A stretch of 18,787 nt of DNA from a virus (lineage: Duplodnaviria > Heunggongvirae > Uroviricota > Caudoviricetes), in the IMG/VR virus record IMGVR_UViG_2778261532_000018, positions 1 to 18,787 of that record; one strand, written 5' to 3'. The number at the start of each line of letters is the position of its first letter. The first letter of the stretch is position 1. The notes below the pieces were generated by a model. The model made no database searches. It saw only the letters and a list, made by a program, of their open reading frames with translations, and had not been told where the DNA came from. The translations under genes were made by a program, and so were the position numbers. Of this stretch, positions 3,018-18,787 are shown piece after piece.

Positions 3018-3022
3018 ATATT

Positions 3023-3097: not shown

Positions 3098-3099
3098 AA

Positions 3100-4338: not shown

Positions 4339-4937
4339 GCAGCCTCACTTCTGCTGTTTCGCAGTTTTTTAAGTTTCTGTTGATACTCCGCCTTGATGGC
4401 CCTGCACTCTTCGACAGTCCAGCGATGGCGGTTATGGTTTGATTCGATTTCGTCTACTGCTTCCTGCCCGATGCGGTTAATCAGTTCGACGCGATACGGA
4501 ACGAGATTTCCGCTTTTATGTTGGTTGCACACCACGCATTGCTTGTGAATATTGCGTTCATCAAATCGGAGTTGAGGCGCCGCAGCAGTTGTCCGGTAAT
4601 GCCCGGCATCCCACTGAGCAGACGTGAGCGTTCCGCACGAGATACATGGTAAGTCGCGGTCTCTTTCTCTGATGAAGGCGTTTACGGCTTGTTGGGCTTG
4701 TTTAATCCAGTAACTGCGGGGCTTTAAGGCGAGTTTTCGAATCTTAAGTTTATCTTTCTGTCTCTGATCCTCTCGTCGTCGTTTCTTCTCTGCTGCTTTT
4801 TCCGCTTTTTCGCGTTCTTTGCTTCGTCGTTCGAGTGCTATCTTTGTTCCACAAATCTCATTACACCAATATTGATTTTGATATTTTGGTATAAACCATT
4901 CATTGCAACATTTACATTTCCTTCGATAGATTCGCAT
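4335..4937 (-). CDS. ninG: NinG (Rap) recombination protein with recoded N-terminus
   Basis: ATG at 4937 preceded by AGGAG; product [15 protein letters not shown]... becomes lambda-NinG-like from [18 protein letters not shown] onward; the first ~30 codons are AT-rich and divergent. Confidence 0.8.
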
Positions 4938-5478
4938 AAGTGCTCCTTTCGTTGCCGGAAAAATCACCGTAATACTTATCTCGGGCTTCTTCAGCAACTA
5001 GTACCGCTAACTCCAGATCATCAAAGCATCCGAAGTGTTTACTCTTGCCATGGAAACCTAGCCTAACATTCCATTTTTTCTGTCGTTTGTGCCAAGTAAC
5101 TCCTCTGCAACCTGATTTGCTATTCTTTCGGATCCTTATATTTCTTGAATTTTCTATTGGCAGGCATTCTCTTAAATTTTCTGGCCTATTGTCGGTCCTA
5201 ATTCCATTAACGTGGTCAATTTGACCAGCAGGCCAACGATTATGAGTTATGTAAAAAACTAAGACGTGAGTTTTATATCTACGCCCATCAATCATGATCA
5301 TTGAATAACCGTTGGAATCAAAAGTTCCAGCAACACTATTTAATGCTATCCTTCCCTGAGTGGGAACTTTCCATCTAAATACACCGGTAGATTTATCGAA
5401 ACTTAGTAACTCAAATATCCTTTTAACAGTTAAATCTTCTCTTTTACGGTTACATCGTCTTCGCGCTGGTTTAGCCAT
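4912..5478 (-). CDS. HNH homing endonuclease (HNH_3 plus AP2-like DNA-binding domain) fused to the native ninG start
   Basis: 188-aa ORF; first 9 codons MAKPARRRC sit at the normal ninF/ninG junction; then HNH motif ([16 protein letters not shown]) and AP2-like segment ([27 protein letters not shown]); AT-rich. Confidence 0.75.
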
Positions 5479-5647
5479 CGTCTTCTTCCTCGTACATTGA
5501 GCTATTCGGATCGCTCATCAGTTCTGCGCAGCAATCGGAGCACACGTGAACTTCCAGCACATGCAGCTTCTGACCGCAGTTAGCGCACGTTAAAGCTCGC
5601 TCGACGCTTTCTTTCTGGTATTGAAGGGATTGGGATTGGCTAAGCAT
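5471..5647 (-). CDS. ninF: NinF
   Basis: Product from [36 protein letters not shown]... matches lambda NinF as I recall it; start chosen at the internal ATG 5647. Confidence 0.8.
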   Translation of the reverse strand: MLSQSQSLQYQKESVERALTCANCGQKLHVLEVHVCSDCCAELMSDPNSSMYEEEDDG

Positions 5648-6047
5648 GGATTTCACCATTAAAAAGTCGCTTGTAAGCATCAATGTCTCGTTTTGCTTCA
5701 CCGAGCTTTCGTCTTAATTCCATGTTTTCTGATTCAAGCTTTTCCATGTCTTGTTGGTATCGATCGCGGTGTTCTTTCCATGCTTTTTGATACGCCTTCA
5801 TGTATGTCGTATTGGCCTTTCTCTTTGCCTGACGAACCGCATGGTGGTTTTTCACAAACCAGTCAGGGTCGTTAAATGCTGCTCTGGCGCAGGTATACCA
5901 ATAATTTGTTGCCTCCCTGTTTAGCCAATAAATACTGATAAATGGCAACCGGATAGACACCATTTTTCGTTGTGACTCTTTCTCGCCAAACATGTGTCCT
6001 TTTTTGATGCTAAGGCCAAATCCAGGTTGAATTAAAAGCATTGTCAT
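5640..6047 (-). CDS. Hypothetical nin-region protein (slot between ninE and ninF, where P22-like phages carry ninX)
   Basis: 135-aa ORF whose ATG overlaps the ninE stop (ATGA); charged, probably coiled-coil C-terminus; no lambda counterpart recalled. Confidence 0.5.
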
Positions 6048-6220
6048 TTCCTCGCACGTTCTCTAAGCCACCGGATATCCCACAGGTGAGCCGTGTAGTT
6101 GAAGGTTTTTACGTCAGATTCTTTTGGGATTGGCTTGCGTTTATTTCTGGAGCGTTTCGTTGGAAGGTATTTGCAGTTTTCGCAGATGATGTCGGTGATA
6201 CTTCGTCGCTGTCGTCTCAT
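6044..6220 (-). CDS. ninE: NinE
   Basis: Manually translated 58-aa ORF, below the 60-aa cutoff of the ORF track: [58 protein letters not shown]; ATGA overlaps on both sides. Confidence 0.7.
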
Positions 6221-7062
6221 GACGCATCCTCAAAATTAAATCCAAGCTGACATGAAAATGCTTCACATGATTCAGAACACGAACCTGAATCATACTGTCG
6301 CATTGATGTCATTCTTGAGGCTAACTCATCTCTTGATATATCACTAAACAAGGCAATCAGTGATTTAAGTGTATTATTCCCTCGATACATAACCGGTTCC
6401 TTTCCTGTTTTTATTTCTGTATCAAGGATGTTGATAAATGCATCTGCAAGTTCTGGCTCATCCATGGCTGCCAGCGCCACCTTTTGCATACTTTTTTTTA
6501 TGCAGAAAACACAATTACCAAGATGCTCCTGTATGCCAAGATCAAACTTCTGCTCACTCCACCAATCAAGCACATCCTGTTTTTCAAAATCGCTTATATC
6601 AGCCAGGTACCGAAAACCATTAGCCCTTTTAAGCCTGTTTGGTTCATCTGTGCGAATGCCAAGCCATGTGATGTAATTTCCTTTCCCAAACTTTTCCTGA
6701 CAATATTTGGTGAATGGAACAGACTTCATTCTGTCGGTACAGAACGCACCGCCGATATATGGATGTCCGTATTTATTCAACATCCTTTTCCACGGTATAA
6801 GATCTGGACCAATATCATTGACACCTATCTCTTCATAACTACTGGCCTTCCCCATTTCTGGATTAGGTATTACACGAAGGCAATGTAAGTCTATTTTCCA
6901 GTTACTGACGATATTTCGGATGAACTCATATGTTTTAGGGTGCTCTGCCCCTGTATCCATGAAAACGTAATGCACGTCTTCACCTGCCTGTCGCTTTTGC
7001 TCCATTAGCCAGAGCAAATATGCTGACGTCCTGCCACCTGAGAAACTAACGACATTTATCAT
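6217..7062 (-). CDS. ninC: NinC (PAPS-reductase-like protein)
   Basis: Product from [24 protein letters not shown]... matches lambda NinC as I recall it; start at internal ATG 7062 overlapping the methyltransferase stop, not the extended track start 7152. Confidence 0.85.
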
Positions 7063-7586
7063 GCAGCCCTCCTGACACCCTGCCCGATCGCCATCAATGC
7101 CGCTTTGGATACGGTAGTAAACATCCGTCGAGGACTGATGAACGGTCGCCAAATCAGCAGCATGGAGCCTTTGCTGTTTCCCTTCTTCTCCAGCCCCGTC
7201 GATGGTTCGATAAAATTAATCCGTCCATCAGTGATAATACGAACTTCGTCAACACTCTCCAGAGCCTTGCTGAACCATCCGACAGACATATCCTCTGGCA
7301 CAAGCATCACTACCGTCTGTCGTTGTTGTATGCACTGCTCAGCGGCTTTTTCCACCCACGGCCTGATATTGCTGTACGGTGGGTTATTCCAGATTGCACC
7401 GTGGCTTACCCACTCAGAATTGAGCGCGTCGTCGGCCTCAGTTAGCCAGTGAGCACACAGAGCATTTTTGTCGCTCGCTGCCGAATCCAGCCAGAATCCA
7501 AACTCAATATCCAGTGCATCAAAAAGCCAAAGCGGCGTTTGCCAGCAGTCCTTGTCGTGTGCTGGCGTATTTGATTTGATAGTCAT
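7059..7586 (-). CDS. Phage DNA N6-adenine methyltransferase (Dam-like)
   Basis: 176-aa product from MTIKSNTPAHDKDCWQTPLWLFDALD... with NPPY catalytic motif (IWNNPPYSN); ATGA overlaps with ninB stop and ninC start. Confidence 0.7.
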   Translation of the reverse strand: MTIKSNTPAHDKDCWQTPLWLFDALDIEFGFWLDSAASDKNALCAHWLTEADDALNSEWVSHGAIWNNPPYSNIRPWVEKAAEQCIQQRQTVVMLVPEDMSVGWFSKALESVDEVRIITDGRINFIEPSTGLEKKGNSKGSMLLIWRPFISPRRMFTTVSKAALMAIGQGVRRAA

Positions 7587-8023
7587 GCAGCCCGATCTCC
7601 CCATCTCGCTTTCCACTCCAGAGCCAGTCTCGCTTCGTCTGACCACTTAACGCCACGCTCTGTACCGAATGCCTGTATAAGCTCTAATAGCTCCGCAAAT
7701 TCGCCTACACGCATCCTGCTGGTTGACTGGCCTATTACCACAAAGCCATTCCCGGCAAGGTTAGGAACAACATCCTGCTGCTTTAATGCTGCGGTAAACA
7801 CACACTTCCAGCTTTCTGCATCCAGCCAGCGACCATGCCATTCAACCTGACGAGAGACGTCACCAAGGCAAGCCCAAAGCTTTCGGTTTTGGTCTAAGCT
7901 GCGGTTGCGTTCCTGAATGGTTACTACGATTGGTTTGGTTGGGTCTGGAAGAATTTGCTGTACTGCGTGAATAGCGTTTTGCTGATGTGCTGGAGATCGA
8001 ATTTCAAAGGTTAGTTTTTTCAT
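7583..8023 (-). CDS. ninB: NinB recombination protein
   Basis: Product from MKKLTFEIRSPAHQQNAIHAVQQILPDPTKPIVVTIQERNRSLDQNRKLWACLGDVSRQVEWHGRWL... matches lambda NinB as I recall it. Confidence 0.9.
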   Translation of the reverse strand: MKKLTFEIRSPAHQQNAIHAVQQILPDPTKPIVVTIQERNRSLDQNRKLWACLGDVSRQVEWHGRWLDAESWKCVFTAALKQQDVVPNLAGNGFVVIGQSTSRMRVGEFAELLELIQAFGTERGVKWSDEARLALEWKARWGDRAA

Positions 8024-8037
8024 GACTTCCCTCTCCC

Positions 8038-8071
8038 CCAAATAAAAAGGCCTGCGATTACCAGCAGGCCT
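8038..8071 (-). terminator. Intrinsic terminator between ren and ninB (tR2-like position)
   Basis: Minus strand: AGGCCTGC-TGGTAATC-GCAGGCCT followed by TTTTTATTT. Confidence 0.65.
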
Positions 8072-8096
8072 GTTATTAGCTCAGTGATGTAGATGG

Positions 8097-8387
8097 TCAT
8101 CTTTTAACTCCATATACCGCCAATACCCGTTTCATCGCGGCACTCTGGCGACACTCCTTAAAAATCAGGTTCGTGCTCATCTTTCCTTCCCGTTCTTCCC
8201 TGGTAGCAAACCGGTAATACACCGTTCGCCAGACCTTACCTTCGATAACCAGAAGACCTGCCCGTGCCATTTTAGCCGCGGCCTGATTTATGCTGGTTAC
8301 TGTTGCGCCTGTTAGCGCGGCAACGTCCGGCGCACAGAAGCTATTATGCGTCCCCAGGTAATGAATAATTGCCTCTTTGCCCGTCAT
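8097..8387 (-). CDS. ren: Ren
   Basis: 96-aa product MTGKEAIIHYLGTHNSFCAPDVAALTGATVTSINQAAAKMARAG... matches lambda Ren as I recall it. Confidence 0.9.
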   Translation of the reverse strand: MTGKEAIIHYLGTHNSFCAPDVAALTGATVTSINQAAAKMARAGLLVIEGKVWRTVYYRFATREEREGKMSTNLIFKECRQSAAMKRVLAVYGVKR

Positions 8388-9085
8388 ACACTTGCTCCTT
8401 TCAGTCCGAACTTAGCTTTGAGTTCTGCGATCTTCGCCAGAGCCTGTGCACGATTTAGAGGTCTACCGCCCATGACAGGAAGTTGTTTTACTGGTTCAGG
8501 GATCGCCTCACCACGGTTAATTCTCGCAGTCATATGGACAAGCTCATCTGCGGCCTTACGGCGTAATTCCGCATCAGTAAGCGCATTGGCCCGCATGTTC
8601 TGATACAGGTTGGTAACCAGCCAGTAGTGCGCGTTTGATTTCCACGGATAAGACTCCGCATCCGGATACAGGCCTCGCTTCCGGCAATACTCGTAAACCA
8701 TATCAACCAGCTCGCTGACGTTTGGCAGTCCGGCGATAACGGATGCTTCTTCCCGGCACCATGCAACAAACTGCCCGGGTGATGGCAGAAATGGTCGATT
8801 CTGCCGACGGGCTACGCGCATTCCTGCGTTAACCTGTTCCATTGTGGTGATCCCGTTTTCCCGGAAAGCCAGCACCCACTGGCGGCGGATTTCGTTCAGT
8901 TCGTTCTGGTCCCGGTTAGCCAGGCTCGCCGGGAAAGTTGCCAGTAACTGGCTGAACACACCATTGATGATCTGCGCTACCTGTTGTACCTGCGGCTTTT
9001 CGTCGTACTGTTCCGGCATGTTGTTGGCGATCCGACGCATCTGCTCACGGTCAAAGTTAACCATCTGTGCGGCGATGTTTTTCAT
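8384..9085 (-). CDS. P: Replication protein P (DnaB helicase loader)
   Basis: 233-aa product MKNIAAQMVNFDREQMRRIANNMPEQYDEKPQVQQVAQIING... matches lambda P as I recall it. Confidence 0.95.
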   Translation of the reverse strand: MKNIAAQMVNFDREQMRRIANNMPEQYDEKPQVQQVAQIINGVFSQLLATFPASLANRDQNELNEIRRQWVLAFRENGITTMEQVNAGMRVARRQNRPFLPSPGQFVAWCREEASVIAGLPNVSELVDMVYEYCRKRGLYPDAESYPWKSNAHYWLVTNLYQNMRANALTDAELRRKAADELVHMTARINRGEAIPEPVKQLPVMGGRPLNRAQALAKIAELKAKFGLKGASV

Positions 9086-9981
9086 AGATCCACCCCGTAA
9101 ATCCAGTCTGTGTTTGTCAGGTCGAGTTTTGGTTTGCTGGCTATCACGCCTGCCTGTTGCTTGTTACGGTTGATTTCGAGTTGGGTCCACTTATCGCGGA
9201 GTTTGGCCGGGCTCAGCACGTTACCGGACCAGAAGTTGTCCTGGCAGGCCCAGCGGAAAAGCACACACATATCGCGGTGGTTACGTCCGTCACGTTCACG
9301 CATCAGGCGGATATCGTTAGCCCACCCAGCAAAATTCGGTTTTCTGGCTGATGGCGCGATGGTCTTCACCATGTCAAACATCCACTCTGCGGCGGTCAGG
9401 TCTTCTGCTGTTCCCCACTTGCTGCCGCTCTGAATTGCAGCATCCGGTTTAACCACAGAAAGATCGTTTTCTGGCTGGTCAGAGGATTCGCCAGAATTCT
9501 CTGACGAATAATCTTTTCTTTTTTCTTTTGTATTAGTGTCTTTTGTGTTCCCCTGTTTTGAGGGATAGCAATCCCCCAATTTGAGGGATGTTTTATCCCT
9601 CGTTTTAGGGGGTTTTCCCTCGTTTTGAGGGATACACCATTCTGAGATGTTTTTATTTGGTCCAAACATGCCGCCTTGCTGCTTGATAATATTCATTCTG
9701 ACGAGTTCTAACTTGGCTTCATTGCACCGTTTAACAGGTAACTTTGTAATCTCGCTAAGTTGAGAATCGGTGATTCTGTCCATTGGTTTATTCCACCCAT
9801 AGGTTTTACGCAGAATGGCAAGCAGCACTTTAAACTGTCGCTTGGTCAGATCTGCGCCTGAATAAGCCTCAAGCAGCATATTTGATAGTCTGGCGTAACC
9901 ATCATCGAGATCTGCCACATTACGCTCCTGTCCGGCAAAGTTACCTCGGCCGAAGTTGAGTATTTTTGCTGTATTTGTCAT
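9082..9981 (-). CDS. O: Replication initiator O
   Basis: 299-aa product MTNTAKILNFGRGNFAGQERNVADLDDGYARLSNMLLEAYSGADLTKRQFK... matches lambda O; contains the ori iterons. Confidence 0.95.
   Translation of the reverse strand: MTNTAKILNFGRGNFAGQERNVADLDDGYARLSNMLLEAYSGADLTKRQFKVLLAILRKTYGWNKPMDRITDSQLSEITKLPVKRCNEAKLELVRMNIIKQQGGMFGPNKNISEWCIPQNEGKPPKTRDKTSLKLGDCYPSKQGNTKDTNTKEKRKDYSSENSGESSDQPENDLSVVKPDAAIQSGSKWGTAEDLTAAEWMFDMVKTIAPSARKPNFAGWANDIRLMRERDGRNHRDMCVLFRWACQDNFWSGNVLSPAKLRDKWTQLEINRNKQQAGVIASKPKLDLTNTDWIYGVDL
9495..9635. repeat. ori-lambda: four ~18-bp iterons (9550-9634) plus adjacent AT-rich region (about 9495-9545) inside O
   Basis: Four copies of a TCCCTC-N6-GAGGGA type inverted motif at ~22-bp spacing, flanked by an A/T-rich stretch. 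Confidence 0.85.
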
Positions 9982-9984
9982 AAT
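9956..9984 (+). promoter_or_regulatory. pO promoter for OOP RNA
   Basis: -35 TTGAGT (9956-9961), 17-bp spacer, -10 CATAAT (9979-9984). Confidence 0.6.
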
Positions 9985-9991
9985 GACTCCT

Positions 9992-10068
9992 GTTGATAGA
10001 TCCAGTAATGACCTCAGAATTCCATCTGGATTTGTTCAGAACGCTCGGTTGCCGCCGGGCGTTTTTTA
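9992..10068 (+). ncRNA. oop: OOP antisense RNA ending in the lambda t0 terminator
   Basis: Sequence from GTTGATAGATCCAGTAATGACC to GCCGCCGGGCGTTTTTT matches the lambda oop/t0 region as I recall it; overlaps the 3' end of cII on the opposite strand. Confidence 0.8.
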
Positions 10069-10310
10069 TTGGTGAGTCCATCAAGCGCATACTTAAAAGC
10101 CCTGCTAATCGGACTGATGTCTGATGCCATTCCGAAAGCACACAAGACCGAAGCAATAAATCTCCAGTCCGTTCTGCTTATCTTCGATTCATGACAGCCA
10201 ATCATCTTTGCCAAACCGCGCTGTGTAAGCGTTGACAGGTTGATGAGTAAATCTGTTTCTGCGCGATCAACGTCGCGCTGTGATAGTTTGCTGTAACTTG
10301 TTTGTTCCAT
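10014..10310 (-). CDS. cII: CII-type lysogeny activator (P22 c1-like N-terminal part, lambda CII-like C-terminus)
   Basis: 98-aa product; the C-terminal TNKKRPAATERSEQIQMEF matches lambda CII, the N-terminal two thirds does not. Confidence 0.8.
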   Translation of the reverse strand: MEQTSYSKLSQRDVDRAETDLLINLSTLTQRGLAKMIGCHESKISRTDWRFIASVLCAFGMASDISPISRAFKYALDGLTNKKRPAATERSEQIQMEF

Positions 10311-10324
10311 TTCTTACTATTTCC

Positions 10325-10366
10325 ATAGGTAAATAATCACTAATACTCATCTTTCGATGAGTGATT
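10325..10366 (-). terminator. Candidate tR1 hairpin between nutR and cII
   Basis: Minus strand AATCACTCATC-GAAA-GATGAGT...AGTGATT nested hairpin followed by a moderately T-rich tail. Confidence 0.4.
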
Positions 10367-10374
10367 AATTAGTT

Positions 10375-10410
10375 ACCGCGTTGTCGGCGGTGCAGATTGA
10401 TAAAGAGCGG
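10375..10410 (-). promoter_or_regulatory. nutR (boxA plus P22-type boxB)
   Basis: Minus strand boxA CGCTCTTTA (10401-10409), then boxB ACCGCCGACAACGCGGT (10375-10391), directly after the cro stop. Confidence 0.65.
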
Positions 10411-10419
10411 ATCCGCTTA

Positions 10420-10635
10420 TTAAGCGGTTTTGTGTTCCGGTGGGAACACGTCATCAAGACTGACTTTTGCGCCTAACTTGTTTAGGCACGCAACAAGAGC
10501 ACGGCATGTTTTAAGGTCTGGGAAGCGACGACCAGATTCCCAATGTCCGATAGCTCCCTGTGTGCATCCAACCGCCTTAGCAAGTGTTGTTTGAGAGATA
10601 TTCAGTGACTCTCGATATTTTCGTAGGTTGCTCAT
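10420..10635 (-). CDS. cro: Cro-like repressor (HTH), heterologous immunity
   Basis: 71-aa product MSNLRKYRESLNISQTTLAKAVGCTQGAIGHWESGRR... with HTH; ATG at 10635 preceded by GGAGGG; divergent from cI across an operator region. Confidence 0.8.
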   Translation of the reverse strand: MSNLRKYRESLNISQTTLAKAVGCTQGAIGHWESGRRFPDLKTCRALVACLNKLGAKVSLDDVFPPEHKTA

Positions 10636-10752
10636 ATGCCCTCCATAGTAACCATGAAACAATAATACGATATGTACTTTTGGAATGCAAACAAAAAATA
10701 CATCTTGTGCATGGATGGTTTTAGTACAGAGCGTAATAATAAGGATATGAAA
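10636..10752. promoter_or_regulatory. OR region with divergent PR and PRM and operator-like 13-bp motifs
   Basis: PR on minus strand: -35 TTGCAT (10685-10690), 17-bp spacer, -10 TATTAT (10662-10667). Motif copies ATACGATATGTAC (10665-10677) and GTACAGAGCGTAA (10724-10736) overlap the PR -10 and a putative PRM -10 (TAATAA 10734-10739). Confidence 0.6.
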
Positions 10753-11406
10753 ATGAAATGGTATGAACTGGCTAGATCCAGAATGAAAGAACTCGGCATA
10801 ACTCAAGAGAAGTTAGCTGAAGAGCTTGGTATGACGCAGGGTGGAATTGGTCACTGGTTGCGCGGATCTCGTCATCCATCTCTTGACGAGATTGGTATGG
10901 TGTTTAAATACCTTGGTATTGATAACGTCTCGTTCAACCACGACGGTACATTTTCACCTGTTGGCGAATACTCATCTGCCCCCGTTAAAAAACAATATGA
11001 GTACCCTGTTTTTTCTCATGTTCAGGCCGGGATGTTCTCGCCTGAGATTAGAACCTTTACCAAAGGTGATGCGGAGAGATGGGTAAGCACAACCAAAAAA
11101 GCCAGTGATTCTGCATTCTGGCTTGAGGTTGAAGGCAACTCAATGACAGCGCCGGCAGGATTGAAACCAAGTTTTCCTGATGGAATGTTAATCTTGGTTG
11201 ACCCTGAACAACCTGTTGATCCTGGTGATTTCTGTATCGCTAGACTTGGTGGTGATGAATTCACATTCAAAAAACTGATCAAAGATAGTGGGCAAGTGTT
11301 TTTGCAACCACTCAACCCGCAGTTTCCAATCATCCCATGCAATGAGAACTGCAACATTGTAGGCAAGGTTATCGCCAGTCAATGGCCTGAAGAGACGTTT
11401 GGGTGA
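10753..11406 (+). CDS. cI: CI repressor (heterologous HTH N-domain fused to lambda-type S24 autocleavage C-domain)
   Basis: C-terminal ~130 aa from [17 protein letters not shown]... to [12 protein letters not shown] match lambda CI as I recall it; N-terminus is different. Start 10753 preferred for SD spacing (alternative ATG 10747; track ORF starts at 10672). Confidence 0.9.
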
Positions 11407-11472
11407 TATATGTGAAATGCATATATTGATATAAATGCAGCAATATCAAATAGTTAAAAGGTTATATTTTTA

Positions 11473-11853
11473 ATGAATGATCTTGATAAGAAAAAGTACG
11501 ACCAAGTTATTGATTCTGTGAACTTCGCCCTTAGATCGTTGTCAGAGTTATTCGAAGCCCATGGAATGCATGGGATGTATGATCTAACGAATCCAAGCCT
11601 TGATGAGCTAAAATTAGTGTTTACAAGGATGAAAAACGGTGTTGACTCTATTGCTCAAAGCTTTGAGCACATGGTAGAGACAGCAAAGGATATGGATGCC
11701 GCAAGTGCAAGCATAAATGTTATGAACATCAAACAAGGATTGATGTATGCTGAATCACTATTGCTTGCTGTAGAGAAATTAGACTATGATAAATGTGTGG
11801 AAGCAAATACGCAGATAAAAACCCACGATCTTCCACCAACCCAATGGCCTTAA
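11473..11853 (+). CDS. Hypothetical protein in the rexAB slot downstream of cI (unrecognised, AT-rich)
   Basis: 126-aa ORF, no hydrophobic segment, acidic; AAAAGG 11 nt upstream of ATG; codon usage markedly more AT-rich than neighbouring lambda-type genes. Confidence 0.6.
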   Translation: MNDLDKKKYDQVIDSVNFALRSLSELFEAHGMHGMYDLTNPSLDELKLVFTRMKNGVDSIAQSFEHMVETAKDMDAASASINVMNIKQGLMYAESLLLAVEKLDYDKCVEANTQIKTHDLPPTQWP

Positions 11854-11922
11854 TAGTAAATCAAGATTTCATATAGTCTATTTGAACTAGGCTAGTACCA
11901 TAAAATAAACCGAGGAAACGCA

Positions 11923-12024
11923 ATGAAAACCATGTCCACTCTGCACAAAGATGCAATGACCCTGAGATCTCTCATTAACGAGATTCTGGCTCGCTCGTCA
12001 GCACACACCAAAAAAGCCGCATAA
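11923..12024 (+). CDS. Small ORF (33 aa, basic) preceding the immunity-region terminator
   Basis: Manually translated: MKTMSTLHKDAMTLRSLINEILARSSAHTKKAA; GAGGAA SD 6-7 nt upstream; below the ORF-track length cutoff. Confidence 0.3.
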   Translation: MKTMSTLHKDAMTLRSLINEILARSSAHTKKAA

Positions 12025-12035
12025 TGCCTACATAA

Positions 12036-12061
12036 CCCGGCCTCAGCGCCGGGTTTTCTTT
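12036..12061 (+). terminator. Intrinsic terminator at the end of the cI-distal operon (tIMM-like position)
   Basis: CCCGGC-CTCAGC-GCCGGG followed by TTTTCTTT. Confidence 0.7.
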
Positions 12062-12199
12062 GCCTCACGATCCCCACACCTAATAACACCATAACCAATT
12101 GTATTTATTGAAAAATTGACAGATACAACTTGCTAAACAGTGCAATTCTGATCCCTCACCTACCAAACAATGTACCCCTGCAAAAAATAAATCCATAAA

Positions 12200-12273
12200 A
12201 TACAATATGTTATAAAAAACCAACAACATTTAGAACATTTTGTATTGACTAAATAAAGTACACATCGTACTAT
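12200..12273 (+). promoter_or_regulatory. OL/pL region with operator-like motifs
   Basis: -35 TTGACT (12245-12250), 17-bp spacer, -10 TACTAT (12268-12273); motif copies ATACAATATGTTA (12200-12212), a weaker copy on the opposite strand (12235-12246) and GTACACATCGTAC (12258-12270) overlapping the -10. Confidence 0.55.
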
Positions 12274-12316
12274 TTAGCCATCAGCAGGAAGCTGGAAGCC
12301 AAACGGAACAGATTGG

Positions 12317-12353
12317 CGGGCTCTTTAACTTCGATGGGGCGCTGACAAAGCGC
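12317..12353 (+). promoter_or_regulatory. nutL (boxA plus P22-type boxB)
   Basis: boxA-like GGCTCTTTAAC (12319-12329) then boxB hairpin GCGCTGACAAAGCGC (12339-12353). Confidence 0.7.
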
Positions 12354-12472
12354 AAACAGATACCAAACGAGATGGGTTTGGCGGTGATGTGAATTGCAGC
12401 TGCAACGACAGCAACCAGAAGATCAGCATCTGGCGCATCACCACCAAAGCCATTTCACATGAGGAAAACATC

Positions 12473-12781
12473 ATGACGGTAATCGTGTACGGGAAATCAA
12501 CATTCGCAGGAAATGCCAAAACTCGCCGTCATGAGCGGCGCAGAAAGCTGGCCATCGAGCGTGATTCCATCTGCAACATCATCGATTCGATCTTCGGAAC
12601 AGACAGCGAGGAACCTGTTCAGAAAGACACGAGAAAGCGTTTAAGCCTTTCTGAAAAAGCAATATCACTCGGCAACATTCGTAACCAAAATACCGACGAA
12701 TGCAGTGGAAGTATTTGCCTGCCAAACGTAGCCATTTACGCGGCAGGCTACCGGAAATCAAAACAACTGACGGCGAGGTAA
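12473..12781 (+). CDS. N: Antiterminator N (P22 gene 24-like, arginine-rich motif)
   Basis: Product from MTVIVYGKSTFAGNAKTRRHERRRKLAIERD... ; arginine-rich motif matches P22 N as I recall it; GAGGAA SD; start is the internal ATG of the track ORF. Confidence 0.85.
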   Translation: MTVIVYGKSTFAGNAKTRRHERRRKLAIERDSICNIIDSIFGTDSEEPVQKDTRKRLSLSEKAISLGNIRNQNTDECSGSICLPNVAIYAAGYRKSKQLTAR

Positions 12782-12783
12782 TT

Positions 12784-13200
12784 ATGGATTTAAGTAAATT
12801 AGAAAGCTCCTTGGAAGCATCAGTAAAAAATTTTATATCAGTAATTGATGAAAAAACTGAAGATATTAAGAAAGCAACTATTGCAGAACTTATTCAAACA
12901 AGAGCCAGTACATTTGATCATCTTCCTGATGATGTCCGGTCAGCGGCAATTCATTTATATGTTACAGCGCTAAGCAATATTGAACCCCCAATTGATGAAG
13001 AATCAAGAGATATTCAGAAAAAACGGTTTGAGATGTTAGCCAGCAACATTATCGCTGGTTTCACACAACTCTTAACAAAAGAGCCTGCCAGTGAGGCTGT
13101 TCGCCAGCAGGCTCAGGTAATGATTAATCAGGCAGAAACTATTTCACGTGAGCGAAAAGCATTTGATAAATCGGTTTCTGAACTTCCAACACCTCAATAG
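12784..13200 (+). CDS. Hypothetical protein immediately downstream of N (unrecognised, AT-rich)
   Basis: 138-aa product from MDLSKLESSLEASVKNFISVIDEKTEDIKK...; ATG 2 nt after the N stop with GAGGT upstream; no hydrophobic segment. Confidence 0.55.
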   Translation: MDLSKLESSLEASVKNFISVIDEKTEDIKKATIAELIQTRASTFDHLPDDVRSAAIHLYVTALSNIEPPIDEESRDIQKKRFEMLASNIIAGFTQLLTKEPASEAVRQQAQVMINQAETISRERKAFDKSVSELPTPQ

Positions 13201-13393
13201 CAGCCGCTGAACCTTCCTTCTCAACAAACTTAATAACTTCATCAAGATGCTTTTTTGCATGTGATGATTGCTCAGGCGGCATAGCAGAAACTATCGAAAT
13301 GATTGCTTGCTGGAGCGCGAGGTTTTCAGTGCTCAGTTTTGAAACTCTGTCGTTTAAATCCTCAATGACTTTAACAAGAGATACATCTGACAT
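13139..13393 (-). CDS. Hypothetical protein, convergent with and overlapping the 3' end of the 12784-13200 gene
   Basis: 84-aa product from MSDVSLVKVIEDLNDRVSKLSTENLALQQ...; strong AAGGAG SD 5 nt upstream of the ATG at 13393. Confidence 0.45.
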   Translation of the reverse strand: MSDVSLVKVIEDLNDRVSKLSTENLALQQAIISIVSAMPPEQSSHAKKHLDEVIKFVEKEGSAAAIEVLEVQKPIYQMLFAHVK

Positions 13394-13404
13394 GTGAACT
13401 CCTT

Positions 13405-13454
13405 CTTTTGACTGTGGAAACAACAGTCTACCCATTTCCTTTGACTGTGGAAAG
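13405..13454. repeat. Two direct repeats with identical 14-bp core TTTGACTGTGGAAA (13407-13420 and 13440-13453)
   Basis: Read directly; 33-bp period; the proximal copy lies immediately upstream of the SD of the 13139-13393 gene. Confidence 0.8.
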
Positions 13455-13513
13455 TGAAGGAACCACCGAGCCTGATGTGGTTAAAAGACAGGCATACGAA
13501 TAAACACTGCACT

Positions 13514-13541
13514 GTGTATTCATTCCAACGAGTGAATACAC
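13514..13541. repeat. Perfect 9-bp inverted repeat GTGTATTCA / TGAATACAC with 10-nt spacer
   Basis: Read directly from sequence; no flanking T-run. Confidence 0.75.
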
Positions 13542-13603
13542 GGAGCAATGTCGCTCGTAACTAAACAGGAGCCGACTTGTTCTGATTATTGGAAATCTTC
13601 TTT

Positions 13604-13629
13604 GCCCTCCAGTGTGAGGGCTTTTTTAT
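13604..13629 (+). terminator. Intrinsic terminator upstream of cIII (tL-type)
   Basis: GCCCTC-CAGTGT-GAGGGC followed by TTTTTTA. Confidence 0.65.
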
Positions 13630-13690
13630 ATGCATACCAATAACGCTTCACTCGAGGCGTTTTTCGTTATGTATAAATAAGGAGCACACC

Positions 13691-13855
13691 ATGCAATATG
13701 CCATTGCAGGGTGGCCTGTTGCTGGCTGCCCTTCCGAATCTTTACTTGAACGAATCACCCGTAAATTACGTGACGGATGGAAACGCCTTATCGACATACT
13801 TAATCAGCCAGGAGTCCCAAAAAATGGATCAAACACTTATGGCTATCCAGACTAA
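13691..13855 (+). CDS. cIII: CIII (FtsH inhibitor)
   Basis: 54-aa product [54 protein letters not shown] matches lambda CIII; AAGGAG SD. Confidence 0.95.
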   Translation: MQYAIAGWPVAGCPSESLLERITRKLRDGWKRLIDILNQPGVPKNGSNTYGYPD

Positions 13856-13967
13856 ATTCACTATCGCCACTTTTATTGGCGATGAAAAGATGTTTCGTGA
13901 GGCCGTCGACGCTTATAAAAAATGGATATTAATACTGAAACTGAGATCAGGCAAAAGCATTCACTAA
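13824..13967 (+). CDS. kil: Kil (host killing/FtsZ inhibitor)
   Basis: 47-aa product [47 protein letters not shown] as in lambda; overlaps cIII end and gam start. Confidence 0.85.
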
Positions 13968-14338
13968 CCCCCTTTCCTGTTTTCCTAATCAGCCCGGCAT
14001 TTCGCGGGCGATATTTTCACAGCTATTTCAGGAGTTCAGCCATGAACGCTTATTACATTCAGGATCGTCTTGAGGCTCAGAGCTGGGCGCGTCACTACCA
14101 GCAGATCGCCCGTGAAGAGAAAGAGGCAGAACTGGCAGACGACATGGAAAAAGGTCTTCCACAGCACCTGTTTGAATCACTCTGCATCGATCATTTGCAA
14201 CGCTGCGGGGCCAGCAAAAAAGCCATTACCCGTGCGTTTGATGACGATGTTGAGTTTCAGGAGCGCATGGCAGAACACATCCGGTACATGGTTGAAACCA
14301 TTGCTCACCACCAGGTTGATATTGATTCAGAGGTATAA
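13922..14338 (+). CDS. gam: Gam (RecBCD inhibitor)
   Basis: 138-aa product [36 protein letters not shown]... matches lambda Gam. Confidence 0.95.
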
Positions 14339-14343
14339 AACGG

Positions 14344-15129
14344 ATGAGTACAGCACTCGCAACGCTGGCAGGGAAGCTGGCTGAACGTGTCGGCATGGAT
14401 TCTGTCGACCCACAGGAACTGATCACCACTCTTCGCCAGACGGCATTTAAAGGTGATGCCAGCGATGCGCAGTTCATCGCATTGTTGATCGTCGCCAACC
14501 AGTATGGCCTTAATCCGTGGACGAAAGAAATTTACGCCTTCCCTGATAAGCAGAACGGCATCGTTCCGGTGGTGGGCGTTGATGGCTGGTCCCGCATCAT
14601 CAATGAAAACCAGCAGTTTGATGGCATGGACTTTGAGCAGGACAATGAATCCTGCACATGCCGGATTTACCGCAAGGACCGTAATCATCCGATCTGCGTT
14701 ACCGAGTGGATGGATGAATGCCGCCGCGAACCATTCAAAACCCGCGAAGGCAGAGAAATTACGGGGCCGTGGCAGTCGCATCCCAAACGGATGTTACGGC
14801 ATAAAGCCATGATTCAGTGTGCCCGTCTCGCCTTCGGATTTGCGGGTATCTATGACAAGGATGAAGCCGAGCGCATTGTCGAAAATACCGCATACACTGC
14901 AGAACGTCAGCCGGAACGCGACATCACTCCGGTTAACGATGAAACCATGCAGGAGATTAACACTCTGCTGATCGCCCTGGATAAAACATGGGATGACGAC
15001 TTATTGCCGCTCTGTTCCCAGATATTTCGCCGCGACATTCGTGCATCGTCAGAACTGACACAGGACGAAGCAGTGAAAGCTCTTGGATTCCTGAAACAAA
15101 AAGCCACTGAACAGAAGGTGGCAGCATGA
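14344..15129 (+). CDS. bet: Bet (Red-beta single-strand annealing protein)
   Basis: 261-aa product [48 protein letters not shown]... matches lambda Bet. Confidence 0.95.
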
Positions 15130-15806
15130 CACCGGACATTATCCTGCAGCGTACCGGGATCGACGTGAGAGCTATCGAGCAGGGAGATGATGCGTGGCAC
15201 AAATTACGGCTCGGCGTCATCACCGCTTCAGAAGTTCACAACGTGATAGCAAAGCCCCGCTCAGGAAAGAAGTGGCCTGACATGAAAATGTCCTACTTCC
15301 ACACCCTGCTGGCTGAGGTTTGCACCGGTGTGGCTCCGGAAGTTAATGCTAAGGCGCTGGCCTGGGGAAAACAGTACGAGAACGACGCCAGAACTCTGTT
15401 TGAATTCACTTCCGGCGTGAATGTTACTGAATCCCCGATCATCTATCGCGACGAAAGTATGCGCACCGCCTGCTCTCCCGATGGTTTATGCAGTGACGGC
15501 AATGGCCTTGAGCTGAAATGCCCGTTTACCTCCCGGGATTTCATGAAGTTCCGGCTCGGTGGTTTCGAGGCCATAAAGTCGGCTTACATGGCCCAGGTGC
15601 AGTACAGCATGTGGGTGACACGAAAAGATGCCTGGTACTTTGCCAACTATGACCCGCGTATGAAGCGTGAAGGACTGCATTATGTCGTGGTTGAGCGGGA
15701 TGAAAAGTACATGGCGAGTTTTGACGAGATGGTGCCGGAGTTCATCGAAAAAATGGACGAGGCACTGGCTGAAATTGGTTTTGTATTTGGGGAGCAATGG
15801 CGATGA
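15126..15806 (+). CDS. exo: Exo (lambda 5'-3' exonuclease)
   Basis: 226-aa product [50 protein letters not shown]... matches lambda Exo. Confidence 0.95.
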
Positions 15807-15985
15807 CGCATCCTCACGATAATATCCGGGTAGGCGCGATCACTTTCGTCTACTCCGTTACAAAGCGAGGCTGGGTATTTCCCGGCCTTTCTGTTATCAG
15901 AAATCCACTGAAAGCACAGCGGCTGGCTGAGAAGATAAATAATAAACGGGAGGCGGTATGCACAAAGCATCTCCTGTTGAGTTAA
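15797..15985 (+). CDS. Lambda orf60a-like protein
   Basis: 62-aa product containing [48 protein letters not shown]...; matches the lambda orf60a product as I recall it. Confidence 0.75.
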
Positions 15986-16143
15986 GAACGAGTATTGAGA
16001 TGGCACATAGCCTTGCTCAAATTGGAGTCAGGTTTGTGCCAATACCAGTAGAAACAAACGAAGAATTTCATACGTTAGCCACATCCCTTTCACAAAAGCT
16101 GGAAATGATGGTGGCGAAAGCAGAAGCAGATGAGAGAGACTAG
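15958..16143 (+). CDS. Lambda orf63-like protein
   Basis: 61-aa product [61 protein letters not shown]. Confidence 0.75.
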   Translation: MHKASPVELRTSIEMAHSLAQIGVRFVPIPVETNEEFHTLATSLSQKLEMMVAKAEADERD

Positions 16144-16159
16144 GTATGACAACCACTGA

Positions 16160-16441
16160 ATGCATTTTCCTGGCAGCGGGCTTCATATTCTGTGTGCTTA
16201 TGCTTGCCGACATGGGGCTTGTTCAGTGACACCTCAGCAAGAAAACGCCCTTCGCAGCATTGCCCGTCAGGCTAATTCTGAAATCAAAAAAGCCAGACAG
16301 CAGTTTCCGGATAAAAACGTCGATGACATTTGCCGTAGCGTACTGAAGAAGCACCGCGAAACGGTAACGCTGATGGGATTCACACCGACTCATTTAAGCC
16401 TGGCAATCGGCATGTTAAACGGCGTTTTTAAGGAACGGTGA
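16160..16441 (+). CDS. Hypothetical protein at the lambda orf61 position (start uncertain)
   Basis: 93-aa track ORF; a 27-codon hydrophobic ORF (16146-16229, MTTTECIFLAAGFIFCVLMLADMGLVQ) overlaps its 5' part in another frame, so the true start or frame is unresolved. Confidence 0.45.
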   Translation: MHFPGSGLHILCAYACRHGACSVTPQQENALRSIARQANSEIKKARQQFPDKNVDDICRSVLKKHRETVTLMGFTPTHLSLAIGMLNGVFKER

Positions 16442-16539
16442 ACATGAAAAGCAAAATCATCAGGGAGCTACAGGCTCCTTTTTTATTATTCGCATTCACC
16501 CTCAAGCGTATTAACCAACAATTCAGGGATTAATGAAAG

Positions 16540-16761
16540 ATGGCAGACATCATTGATTCAGCATCAGAAATTGAAGAATTACAGCGCAACACAGCAATAA
16601 AAATGCGCCGCCTGAACCACCAGGCTATATCTGCCACTTATTGTTGTGAGTGTGGCGATCCGATAGATGAACGAAGACGCCTGGCCGTTCAGGGTTGTCG
16701 GACTTGTGCAAGTTGCCAGGAAGATCTGGAGCTTATCAGTAAACAGAGAGGTTCGAAGTGA
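16540..16761 (+). CDS. TraR/DksA-family C4 zinc-finger protein
   Basis: 73-aa product with CCECGDPIDERRRLAVQGCRTCASC four-cysteine motif typical of phage TraR-like proteins. Confidence 0.7.
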   Translation: MADIIDSASEIEELQRNTAIKMRRLNHQAISATYCCECGDPIDERRRLAVQGCRTCASCQEDLELISKQRGSK

Positions 16762-17441
16762 GCGAAATTAACTCTCAGGCACTGCGGGCCAAGGCAGAAA
16801 AAGCAACGTGTGGTGAGTGGTCGCTCGAATATGGAGAGAGCCGATTTGATGGTGATGATGCGCTAATTCATCGTGAAGTTGCTGGATATATTCCTATTTG
16901 CAGAATTGAAGGAGCGCATCCAGAAAGCGGTTTCGATGAAGATTTCCAAATGGAACAGCAGGCCAATGCTGAATTCATCGCCGCAGCCAATCCCGCTACC
17001 GTCTTGGCGCTGCTGGATGAGCTGGAAAGAAACCAGCAATACATCAAACGCCGCGACCAGGAGAACGAGGATATTGCGCTTACGGTTGGGAAGCTGAGAG
17101 TTGAGCTTGAGGAGACAAAATCAAAACTCAACGAGCAGCGTGAGTATTACGAAGGCGTTATCTCGGATGGGAGTAAGCGCATTGCTGAACTGGAAAGCAA
17201 CGAAGTCCATGAAGACGGAAATCAGTTTCTTGTTGTTCGCCACCCCGGGAAATCTCCGGTAATCAAGCACTGCACTGGTGACCTGGAAGAGTTTCTGCGG
17301 AAGTTAATCGAACAAGACCCGTTAGTAACTATCGACATCATTACGCATCGCTATTACGGGATTGGCGGTCAATGGGTTCAGGATGCAGTTGAGTATCTGC
17401 ATATGATGTCTGACGCTGGCATTCGCATCAAAGGAGAGTGA
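16758..17441 (+). CDS. Ea22-family protein (lambda Ea22-like, divergent N-terminal region)
   Basis: 227-aa product; MSEINSQALRAKAEKA start and C-terminal ~150 aa (QQYIKRRDQENEDIALTVGKLRVELEE...HMMSDAGIRIKGE) match lambda Ea22 as I recall it. Confidence 0.75.
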   Translation: MSEINSQALRAKAEKATCGEWSLEYGESRFDGDDALIHREVAGYIPICRIEGAHPESGFDEDFQMEQQANAEFIAAANPATVLALLDELERNQQYIKRRDQENEDIALTVGKLRVELEETKSKLNEQREYYEGVISDGSKRIAELESNEVHEDGNQFLVVRHPGKSPVIKHCTGDLEEFLRKLIEQDPLVTIDIITHRYYGIGGQWVQDAVEYLHMMSDAGIRIKGE

Positions 17442-17442
17442 T

Positions 17443-17925
17443 ATGAGCGCTATAACCAAAGAACGTATCGAATTATTCATTAAAAATCCGCTCGATAACG
17501 GACTTACCCGTGGCGAACAAATGGAACTGGCACGAATTGCACTGGCATCGCTGGAAGCAGAGCCGGTGGTGTGGAAGGTAACATTCACGCAAATTGACCG
17601 TGAATATAACACGTTCACTGGTATGTATTCTGACAAAGCAGAAGTCGAACGGTGGCTGCGGCTGCATAAAGCATGTAATTTTCGGGCAGATATAACACCG
17701 CTTTATACCGCCAAGCCAGTGCCGGTAACTCCGGATGGTTGGATAAGCTGTAGTGAGCGAATGCCCGCTCAAGATGATTGGATTTTAATTTATTCAAAGC
17801 ACGGTGAGTATATGGCAGGACAGGTGCAAGGGGAATACGTGGAGTTGAGCGACGGCACTTTATCGTGGTTAGGGAACGCCTTGCTCTGGATGCCGCTACC
17901 AGAAACGCCGCAGGAGGTGAAGTGA
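17443..17925 (+). CDS. DUF551-like prophage protein
   Basis: 160-aa ORF, C-terminal region (WISCSERMPAQDDWILIYSKHGEY...) resembles DUF551 domains common in the early-left regions of lambdoid prophages. Confidence 0.55.
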   Translation: MSAITKERIELFIKNPLDNGLTRGEQMELARIALASLEAEPVVWKVTFTQIDREYNTFTGMYSDKAEVERWLRLHKACNFRADITPLYTAKPVPVTPDGWISCSERMPAQDDWILIYSKHGEYMAGQVQGEYVELSDGTLSWLGNALLWMPLPETPQEVK

Positions 17926-18197
17926 TGGACTCCTTCGCGAAATATACGATTATTGACTGGATAGCATTCCTTCAGGTTTTGCTCATCTGGTTTTATATGG
18001 CTTACAGGAGTGGACAGTGGATTGTCAGTGTAGCCTATAGCAAGGGATGGCGTTGGTGGAACCGAAAGAATAAAAAAACACTGGCCTTGGATTCGTTTTA
18101 CGAAGCATTCAATCTTAACAGTCTTCAGCCTGGTTCTGTCGTTGTAGTCACCACTCAAAGCGTCATGATCATTCAGATTCATAAACCAAAAGAGTAA
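17925..18197 (+). CDS. Small predicted membrane protein (one hydrophobic helix)
   Basis: 90-aa product from MDSFAKYTIIDWIAFLQVLLIWFYMAY...; strong CAGGAGG SD; ATG overlaps the upstream stop (TGATG). Confidence 0.5.
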   Translation: MDSFAKYTIIDWIAFLQVLLIWFYMAYRSGQWIVSVAYSKGWRWWNRKNKKTLALDSFYEAFNLNSLQPGSVVVVTTQSVMIIQIHKPKE

Positions 18198-18199
18198 AA

Positions 18200-18289
18200 A
18201 TGATGTGGCCTATATGTGTTAATTGCGGACGGATGTGCCTATCTGGATGGTGCCGAAAGTGCGACAAATGCACGAAGAAAAGACAATAA
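18200..18289 (+). CDS. Small cysteine-rich peptide (29 aa, 7 Cys)
   Basis: Manually translated MMWPICVNCGRMCLSGWCRKCDKCTKKRQ; starts 3 nt after the upstream stop; weak SD; below ORF-track cutoff. Confidence 0.3.
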   Translation: MMWPICVNCGRMCLSGWCRKCDKCTKKRQ

Positions 18290-18518
18290 CAATCCTCGCA
18301 CTCGCGGGGATTTCTTTTATCTGAACTCACTACGGCGAGTTTTGTTTTATGGAGATGATAAATGCACTTCCGAGTCACAGGTGAATAGAATGGAGAACCA
18401 TTCAACAGAGTTATCGAAGCAGAGAACATCAACGACTGCTATGACCACTGGATGATATGGGTGCAGATAGCACATGCAGACGTAACCAATATTTGTATTG
18501 AAGAACTGAAAGAACACC

Positions 18519-18543
18519 AAGCCGCCTGATGGCGGTTTTTTAT
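18519..18543 (+). terminator. Intrinsic terminator upstream of the excisionase-like gene
   Basis: GCCGCC-TGAT-GGCGG followed by TTTTTTATT. Confidence 0.65.
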
Positions 18544-18586
18544 TACCTGATTTGCAGGTTCGATTCCCTATTCGGAGATAGCACTC

Positions 18587-18787
18587 ATGCAACACGAACT
18601 ACAGCCTGATTCACTGGTTGATTTGAAATTCATCATGGCCGATACTGGCTTCGGTAAAACCTTCATCTATGACCGGATTAAGTCCGGCGACCTGCCAAAA
18701 GCCAAAGTTATCCACGGGCGAGCAAGATGGTTATATCGTGACCATTGTGAATTCAAAAATAAGCTCTTAAGCCGCGCCAATGGGTAA
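18587..18787 (+). CDS. Excisionase-like DNA-binding protein (not lambda Xis), at window edge
   Basis: 66-aa ORF with GGAGA SD at the position where xis precedes int in lambdoid phages; sequence differs from lambda Xis; stop codon is the last three bases of the window. Confidence 0.5.
   Translation: MQHELQPDSLVDLKFIMADTGFGKTFIYDRIKSGDLPKAKVIHGRARWLYRDHCEFKNKLLSRANG

Follow-up and report, generated by a model that had tools for sequence, protein, structure and literature searches.

That lambdoid phages exchange modules, that the junctions fall at the boundaries of genes or domains, and that N and nut sites, or repressor and operators, are kept as matched sets, is textbook knowledge. For phage VT2-Sakai, a split of the CI repressor by domain has been known since 2000: its homology to lambda CI was described as high in the C-terminal part and low in the N-terminal part (Fattah et al. 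2000, as cited in PMC10742460), so such a split is not new in itself. Here, we describe the immunity region of the Caudoviricetes record IMGVR_UViG_2778261532_000018, of which positions 1 to 18,787 (18.8 kb, hereafter the window) were analyzed. The block at 10014-12781 (2,768 bp) is very probably the complete early-control (immunity) region of a lambda-like Escherichia coli prophage and a natural mosaic of known modules. The modules are a Shiga toxin (Stx)-phage-type repressor switch, P22-type N antitermination, and lambda-type replication genes. The block is a new combination of alleles of a well-known kind; such patchworks are ordinary for lambdoid phages and would not surprise a specialist.

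The plus strand of the window corresponds to the leftward (pL/pRM) direction of lambda. The gene order is P-O-cII-nutR-cro-oR-cI-126-residue open reading frame (ORF)-tImm-oL/pL-nutL-N, followed by cIII, kil, gam, bet, and exo. All four regulators score above the Pfam thresholds: CII with Phage_CII (PF05269, E = 8e-35), Cro with HTH_3 (E = 4e-12), CI with HTH_3 (E = 6e-11) and Peptidase_S24 (E = 4e-28), and N with N_peptide (E = 4e-40). The block has a match of ~100% in the complete chromosome of E. coli PEC41, which was isolated from swine feces, and outside the block the window and the PEC41 prophage are 98 to 99.5% identical, the nin region excepted; the window thus stems from a strain closely related to PEC41 and not from PEC41. 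In a larger collection, the exact CI protein was found on 29 contigs and the exact N protein on 33, with CI next to N under neighboring accessions. As for the nin region (window 4334-8032), it is not collinear with PEC41 and shares with it only short patches of 94 to 98% identity, both flanks being 98 to 99.5% identical; this difference reads as another module swap between otherwise near-identical prophages.

The original prediction, made from the letters of the window, described the block as a mosaic of P22-type and lambda-type parts joined inside coding sequences, and a comparison with lambda and P22 by local alignment confirmed the mosaic, with identity steps at several positions. Identity to lambda is 98.4% over 9000-10076 (O with the oop region and the final 21 codons of cII), 86.7% over 10996-11407 (the C-terminal domain of cI), and 88% over 12032-12200 (the tImm terminator region). 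Identity to P22 reaches 94.6% over 37 bp around nutR, ~74% over 12273-12597, and 73% over the last 63 bp of N. The replication module alone is thus truly lambda-like, and the regulatory "P22-type" and "lambda-type" parts are diverged alleles of those types. Junctions inside coding sequences were indeed found in cII, cI, and N. That the block does not derive from a single known phage also held for phage isolates, none in a collection of 50,697 phage records containing the whole of it (best coverage 61%), though it is present at ~100% in the PEC41 prophage.

To assign each segment, identities were taken from local alignments (high-scoring segment pairs) to 12 relatives; global pairwise alignments were dropped, as they gave spurious identities of 60 to 80% in unrelated stretches. 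The 5′ end of O, oop, and the 3′ end of cII (9900-10076) are 98 to 100% identical to lambda, 2009C-3133, and phi458, and in part to ev207 and 683R2. The cII body (10077-10310) is closest to N39, UMNK88, and CAU16175 (98-99%), followed by the VT2-Sakai group (96-98%). The nutR cassette (10311-10419) matches N39 at 100% and UMNK88 and CAU16175 at 98 to 99%, but VT2-Sakai, Nil2, ev207, and 2009C at only ~70%. Across cro, oR, and the N-terminal domain of cI (10420-10995), identity is 99% to N39, 97 to 99% to the phages Dewey, 683R2, and phi458, and 86 to 97% to VT2-Sakai and Nil2. The cI hinge (10996-11066) is ~98.6% identical to N39, UMNK88, CAU16175, Dewey, 683R2, and phi458, 96% to lambda, and 91.5% to the VT2-Sakai group, while the rest of the C-terminal domain (11067-11406) is shared with UMNK88 and CAU16175 at 98.2 to 98.5% and with all others, lambda included, at 82 to 86%. 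Farther on lie a segment matching 2009C-3133 only (11407-12031, 99.5%), which we refer to as a moron, the tImm region (12032-12197, ~90% to lambda, UMNK88, and CAU16175), oL/pL (12198-12272, 92% to N39), and nutL with N (12273-12781, 98-99% to N39). The in-gene junctions are not arbitrary in position; they match the end of the oop unit, the boundary between linker and domain in CI, and the conserved C terminus of N.

The repressor switch is of the VT2-Sakai type. The cro gene (10420-10635, minus strand) encodes a 71-residue protein of the HTH_3 type; the Cro proteins of N39, Nil2, and 2009C-3133 match it at 99%, that of Nil2 with one residue changed. The operators, mapped from the VT2-Sakai annotation, are 17-mers: oR1 (10663-10679), oR2 (10696-10712), and oR3 (10722-10738), with a TAC-N5-GTA/GTG core, and, on the plus strand, oL3 (12198-12214), oL2 (12231-12247), and oL1 (12256-12272). 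Promoter matches place pR at 10691-10662 on the minus strand, overlapped by the oR operators, and pL (TTGACT-17-TACTAT) at 12245-12273 on the plus strand. All six annotated VT2-Sakai operators thus have counterparts that keep the half-sites, with TAC-N5-GT(A/G/T) cores, and show one to four differences each, mostly in the central spacer; the oR sites have one or two each, confined to the central spacer and the outermost base. The helix-turn-helix (HTH) segment of CI is identical to that of VT2-Sakai, Nil2, and ev207, and the four differences from VT2-Sakai and Nil2 in the N-terminal domain all lie outside it. Of 5,426 complete E. coli genomes, 776 contain the core formed by cro, oR, and the N-terminal domain of cI (at least 90% identity), as do 64 phage records, among them VT2-Sakai, Nil2, Stx2-II, 2851, 1717, Dewey, 683R2, and phi458. 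By the CI recognition domain and Cro, and by all three oR and all three oL operators, the locus can be placed in the VT2-Sakai/Nil2 immunity group. The novel immunity specificity that had been presumed was not borne out: since the core is widespread, the HTH identical, Cro nearly so, and the operator cores kept, the immunity is very probably not new and would equal that of the VT2-Sakai group. Lambda immunity (imm-lambda) was considered as well and rejected, there being no DNA similarity to lambda in 10077-10995 and Cro being of a different family type and only 35% identical.

The antitermination module is of the P22 type, as had been predicted from its arginine-rich motif (ARM) and its boxB hairpins. 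N (12473-12781, plus strand; 102 residues, beginning MTVIVYGKSTFAGNAKTRRHERRRKLAIERDSI) is P22-type over codons 1 to 81, which include the ARM at residues 14 to 34, and has codons 82 to 102 in common with the VT2-Sakai/ev207-type N; these last 21 codons are 92% identical to those of the otherwise different N genes of ev207 and 2009C. The ARM, GNAKTRRHERRRKLAIERDSI, agrees with that of P22 gp24, GNAKTRRHERRRKLAIERDTI, at 20 of 21 residues (S for T), and the full-length proteins align at 68% identity. The nutL site (12319-12353, plus strand) consists of boxA GGCTCTTTAA (12319-12328) and boxB GCGCTGACAAAGCGC (12339-12353), and nutR (10375-10409, minus strand) of boxA CGCTCTTTAT (10400-10409) and boxB ACCGCCGACAACGCGGT (10375-10391), the latter site lying within the cassette of ~110 bp at 10311-10419. 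Both boxB sequences are identical to those of P22. The boxA-spacer-boxB pattern occurs at exactly these two sites and in none of 200 shuffles, the nut hairpins are seen in predicted folds, and pL and pR lie upstream of nutL and nutR, respectively. A P22-type ARM together with a boxA and a matching boxB downstream of both early promoters points to a P22-class N/nut system. A PDB sequence search with N returned a chance match only, the P22 N peptide entry probably being too short to be found.

On the 3′ side of nutR, a stable hairpin (10338-10372, minus strand; fold z = -4.0) occupies the position of the tR1 terminator, and a putative rho-dependent terminator is annotated at the equivalent place in the VT2-Sakai record. 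Another hairpin, the GC-rich CCGCTTATTAAGCGG (window 10413-10427), overlaps the cro stop codon directly upstream of the nutR boxA on the pR transcript, and the sequence adjoining it is kept in all members of the immunity group, whatever their nut type.

Modules of this kind are common in coliphages and not unusual here: matches to the nutL-N segment occur in 344 phage records and reach 95 to 99% in 91 of these, including many Stx1 and Stx2 phages and lambda-like isolates such as 1H12. One and the same immunity core is found with three N/nut types, namely lambda-type (Dewey, 683R2), Sakai-type (VT2-Sakai, Nil2, ev207), and P22-type (the window, N39), and nutR matches the type of N in every case checked at the nut sites (the window, N39, UMNK88, CAU16175, and VT2-Sakai/Nil2/ev207). 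The joint between a P22-type nutR and this cro was present in 50 of the 776 genomes with the core.

The cI gene (10753-11406, plus strand) encodes 217 residues, or 231 if the PGAP start at 10711 is used. In keeping with the prediction of a foreign HTH domain joined to a lambda-type autocleavage domain, the DNA of the N-terminal part cannot be aligned with lambda, and the protein from residue 82 to the end matches lambda repressor structures; compared with 3BDN, the Ala92-Gly93 site, the serine of GNSM, and the lysine of FKKL are all kept. With an HTH domain, a Peptidase_S24 domain, the Ala-Gly site, and the Ser/Lys dyad, CI has the features expected of an autocleaving repressor of the CI/LexA (S24) type. 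It is built of three parts: the HTH and linker up to 10995, of the VT2-Sakai/N39 type; the hinge at 10996-11066, which contains Ala92-Gly93; and a variant S24 domain at ~11067-11406. Informative sites are all N39-type up to 10995 and nearly all UMNK88/CAU16175-type from 11067-11085 on, with none in the 71 bp around the cleavage site. The first junction falls at codon 82, the boundary between linker and C-terminal domain at which crystallized lambda C-terminal constructs start, and is an old one, common to the whole VT2-Sakai immunity group. The second would be a later homologous crossover within the conserved hinge that brought in the rarer variant C-terminal domain; the resulting joint was present in 1 of the 5,426 complete genomes.

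Candidates for both parents of the second event could be named. CI of UMNK88 and CAU16175 has 237 residues and an almost lambda-like N-terminal domain, next to a Cro of lambda length; these are wild lambda-immunity prophages with the variant C-terminal domain. CAU16175, a swine E. coli, carries two prophages of interest: one encodes an N39-type CI (WP_014532159.1) alongside the same Cro and has a nutR of the P22 type, and the other has lambda immunity with the variant domain. Combined, they match 10014-11406 at 97% or more. With both putative parents in one strain, recombination between co-resident prophages is a concrete, though inferred, route to this cI. Many genomes with the variant domain are porcine isolates (CAU16175, rl0044, PEC240, UMNK88, UMNF18, and PEC41).

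The variant domain differs from that of lambda by 11 substitutions, among them R196K, Y210F, and M212I (lambda numbering), at positions that form part of the dimer-dimer cooperativity surface. Conceivably, it changes the specificity of oligomerization or cooperativity, or the rate of RecA-induced cleavage, and so insulates the switch from co-resident repressors with the canonical domain. We consider this unlikely; if true, the chimera would bear on cross-talk and induction rather than on the specificity of immunity. An open question posed in PMC10742460 is whether lambda CI and VT2-Sakai CI interact by way of the C-terminal regions that they have in common.

In cII (10014-10310, minus strand; 98 codons), the junction lies at 10076/10077. 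Codons 78 to 98 are lambda-type, the last 20 residues being identical to lambda CII, and codons 1 to 77 are of the VT2-Sakai/N39 type. The exact lambda C terminus that had been predicted is thus present, but the switch comes after codon 77 of 98, at four fifths of the gene and not at two thirds. Nor is the N-terminal part P22 c1-like, as had been proposed: 21 of its 77 residues are identical to P22 C1 and equally 21 of 77 to lambda CII, lambda CII and P22 C1 themselves sharing 47 of 97. Over its full length, the protein is 97 to 99% identical to CII of N39 and ev207.

Antisense to the 3′ end of cII lies a lambda-type oop unit (9956-10075, plus strand) with a promoter-like site at 9956-9984 and an intrinsic-terminator-like stem at 10038-10065, followed by a T-rich tail to ~10075. 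The sequence is 98.4 to 99% identical to lambda up to 10076, and the predicted transcript of ~80 nt folds strongly (z = -3.6). This unit corresponds to the oop antisense RNA of lambda (~77 nt). The P22 record has its annotated oop promoter and terminator at the corresponding place, where they overlap the end of c1. An Rfam scan of 9500-14000 (E ≤ 1) matched no oop or nut family and found only the cIII thermoregulator RNA at the start of cIII (window 13678-13736, plus strand; full-length match to RF01804, 88.5 bits, E = 2e-21); the oop and nut calls rest on identity to lambda and P22 and on direct motif and fold checks. Since the cII junction falls ~10 bp beyond the terminator stem of the oop unit, which is part of the replication module, it marks a module boundary. 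The 63-bp lambda-type end of cII is 93 to 100% identical in most of the relatives examined that have other replication modules, and only 75% identical in VT2-Sakai and Nil2; such conservation across replication modules is as expected of a recombination linker. At the other end of the gene, a pRE-like promoter was read from the sequence on the plus strand (10288-10320), with a CII box TTGC-N6-TTGT at 10288-10301, which falls on the annotated CII binding site of VT2-Sakai, and a -10 element TACTAT at 10315-10320. The Phage_CII domain and this predicted TTGC-N6-TTGC-like box, which occupies the -35 region of pRE across the start of cII, are what a CII-family activator would be expected to have.

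Each specificity set in the block is internally matched, and a circuit inferred from these parts should work like that of a textbook lambdoid phage. CI, with its VT2-Sakai-type HTH, and the matching Cro would compete at the VT2-Sakai-type oR1-3 and oL1-3. N would bind the P22-type boxB RNA at nutL and nutR through its P22-type ARM and, together with boxA and the host Nus factors, render transcription from pL and pR resistant to termination. CII would activate pRE at its TTGC-N6-TTGT box. The lambda-type O/P module would bring along its own oop antisense RNA, which would oppose cII expression; because this RNA overlaps the last 21 codons of cII, the lambda C terminus would be imposed on CII. 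Self-cleavage at Ala92-Gly93, stimulated by RecA, would induce the prophage. The junctions would be harmless, lying beyond the oop terminator, at the CI linker/domain boundary, inside the CI hinge, and before the conserved C terminus of N; as the chimeric proteins are joined at domain or tail boundaries, their function is expected to be kept.

The arrangement probably arose by repeated homologous recombination at short conserved linkers among co-resident or co-infecting lambdoid prophages. Several observations weigh against this account or against a straightforward assignment of the immunity. The breakpoints are drawn from identity steps and informative sites. The oR region as a whole is only 86% identical to VT2-Sakai and the operators have their one to four differences each, so that affinity may be shifted, or there may be partial heteroimmunity, towards VT2-Sakai itself. 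The first base of the nutL boxA is G, where the consensus has C. Finally, in the PEC41 prophage, the closest complete genome, the stretch between torI and the host csc genes contains no annotated integrase, a tail-fibre gene directly adjoins a DNA-packaging gene, and several left-arm genes are pseudogenes; the element may therefore be defective, with its immunity region intact. The operator differences, the low oR identity to VT2-Sakai and Nil2, the lack of a phage isolate with the whole block, and the single genome with this CI joint would also suit the idea that the intragenic chimeras create a repressor/operator system of new immunity specificity. Specificity, however, sits in the HTH and the operator half-sites, and here the HTH is that of VT2-Sakai, Nil2, and ev207, Cro is one residue away from that of Nil2, and most operator changes affect the central spacer or the outermost base. 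Moreover, the phages Dewey, 683R2, and phi458, all of them isolates, carry the core at 97 to 99% identity, the core is widespread in genomes, and what is novel in CI is its C-terminal domain, a part with no role in reading DNA. We therefore regard a new specificity as quite improbable.

Two further explanations concern the origin of the block. If it were a recent direct hybrid, with N and nut from P22 and the C-terminal domain of cI, the cII end, and O/P from lambda, as in laboratory lambda-P22 hybrids, the P22-identical boxB sequences, the near-identical ARM, and the 98.4% identity to lambda across O, oop, and the cII end would be accounted for. Such an origin is extremely improbable, since outside boxB and the ARM the N/nutL segment is 73 to 86% identical to P22 as against 98 to 99% to N39, 97 to 99% to E. 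coli prophages, and 94 to 96% to many coliphages, and since the C-terminal domain of cI is 85% identical to lambda as against 98% to UMNK88 and CAU16175. What looks "P22-type" or "lambda-type" here is, the replication module excepted, made up of long-established E. coli alleles of those types. An assembly artifact is a natural concern for E. coli strains, which often harbor several lambdoid prophages sharing these linkers (two in CAU16175) from which a chimeric contig could be built; yet the same 2,768 bp recur at ~100% in the complete PEC41 chromosome, and the exact CI and N proteins recur on their 29 and 33 contigs, which makes the likelihood of an artifact virtually negligible. Recombination among resident or infecting prophages thus continues to be the account that we favor.

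Between cI and oL, in the slot of the rex genes, lies the moron cassette (11407-12062, plus strand), composed of a 126-residue ORF (11473-11853) and a 33-residue ORF (11923-12024), with an intrinsic terminator (12034-12055) that shows homology to tImm of lambda. Among the relatives compared, it is 99.5 to 100% identical to prophage 2009C-3133 only, and the segment has no near match in the 50,697 phage records. The 126-residue product belongs to PHROG 16322, to which no function is assigned, occurs on at least 1,000 contigs, and had no match in Pfam or PADLOC; its AlphaFold model is helical, with four helices, at low confidence (pLDDT 60, pTM 0.42). Homologs with 66 to 86% identity are found in Klebsiella next to umuDC, in a Pectobacterium P22-like prophage beside mnt/arc/ant, and in Pantoea. 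The 33-codon ORF, MKTMSTLHKDAMTLRSLINEILARSSAHTKKAA, is unannotated; it has a GAGGA Shine-Dalgarno sequence, starts 69 nt after the 126-residue ORF, and ends ~10 nt before the terminator. An ORF of exactly 33 codons follows every homolog of the 126-residue ORF examined in the three other genera, with 52 to 64% identity and a KKAA or QKAA ending, and its substitutions by codon position (81/51/124) follow a coding-like pattern; it had no match in PADLOC and possibly encodes a small labile partner protein. As the trio of 126-residue ORF, 33-codon ORF, and tImm-like terminator recurs in three genera and in unrelated contexts, it behaves as a mobile cassette.

Downstream of N, at the place of sieB/ral in lambda and P22, the window contains a 138-residue ORF (12784-13200, plus strand) and, overlapping it, an 84-residue ORF (13139-13393, minus strand), neither of which had a significant match in Pfam (gathering score), PHROG, or PADLOC. 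Genes for tRNA-Thr (TGT) and tRNA-Asn (GTT) (window 2942-3097, minus strand) separate the Q antiterminator gene from the lysis cassette. In Stx phages, tRNA genes and stx occupy this place; the window has no toxin gene there.

Given that its principles are textbook ones, the locus is of little import for basic biology. Its value is illustrative: one immunity core is seen with three N/nut systems, both parents of a CI domain swap are seen in one strain, and a nutR cassette of ~110 bp co-varies with N across an unrelated immunity core. In practical terms, this is the immunity type of VT2-Sakai-like Stx phages; provided that there is cross-immunity, non-Stx prophages with the repressor could influence how Stx phages superinfect, or are induced in, a host that both share.

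Compared with known systems, the locus shares cro, the oR/oL family, the CI HTH, and the N-terminal part of CII with VT2-Sakai, Nil2, Stx2-II, 2851, 1717, Dewey, vB_EcoP-683R2, and phi458, as well as the same ancient build of CI, in which a non-lambda N-terminal domain is joined at the linker to a lambda-type C-terminal domain. The VT2-Sakai group differs in its N and nut sites (nutR cassette ~70% identical), and Dewey and 683R2 have a lambda-type N; in all of these, and in phi458, the C-terminal domain of CI is the canonical lambda-like one (82-86% DNA identity to that of the window), and the replication and rex-slot genes differ. P22 has the identical boxB, a nearly identical boxA, an ARM with 20 of 21 residues in common, and nut sites at the same positions downstream of pL and pR. 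However, its N is only 68% identical (DNA 73-86%), and the C-terminal 21 residues of the window N are of the type shared by Sakai and ev207; for N/nut, the nearest relatives are found in E. coli prophages and in coliphages (1H12, Lambda_2E9, SH2026Stx1, and many Stx2a phages), not in P22.

With lambda, the locus has in common the gene order, O/P/oop and the last 20 residues of CII (~98%), the tImm region (88%), the cIII thermometer, and, in the C-terminal domain of CI, the fold, the cleavage site, and the catalytic residues. It departs from lambda in cro, which is of the HTH_3 type in the window, in the operators, in the N-terminal domain of CI with 11 further substitutions in the C-terminal domain, in the body of CII, in N and the nut sites, and in having the cassette of 126- and 33-residue ORFs instead of rexAB. 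The prophages of UMNK88 and CAU16175 resemble it in the C-terminal domain of CI (98.2-98.5%), the cII-nutR segment (97-98%), and the P22-type nut sites, but have lambda-type cro, operators, and CI N-terminal domain, an N that is 90% identical, and no moron.

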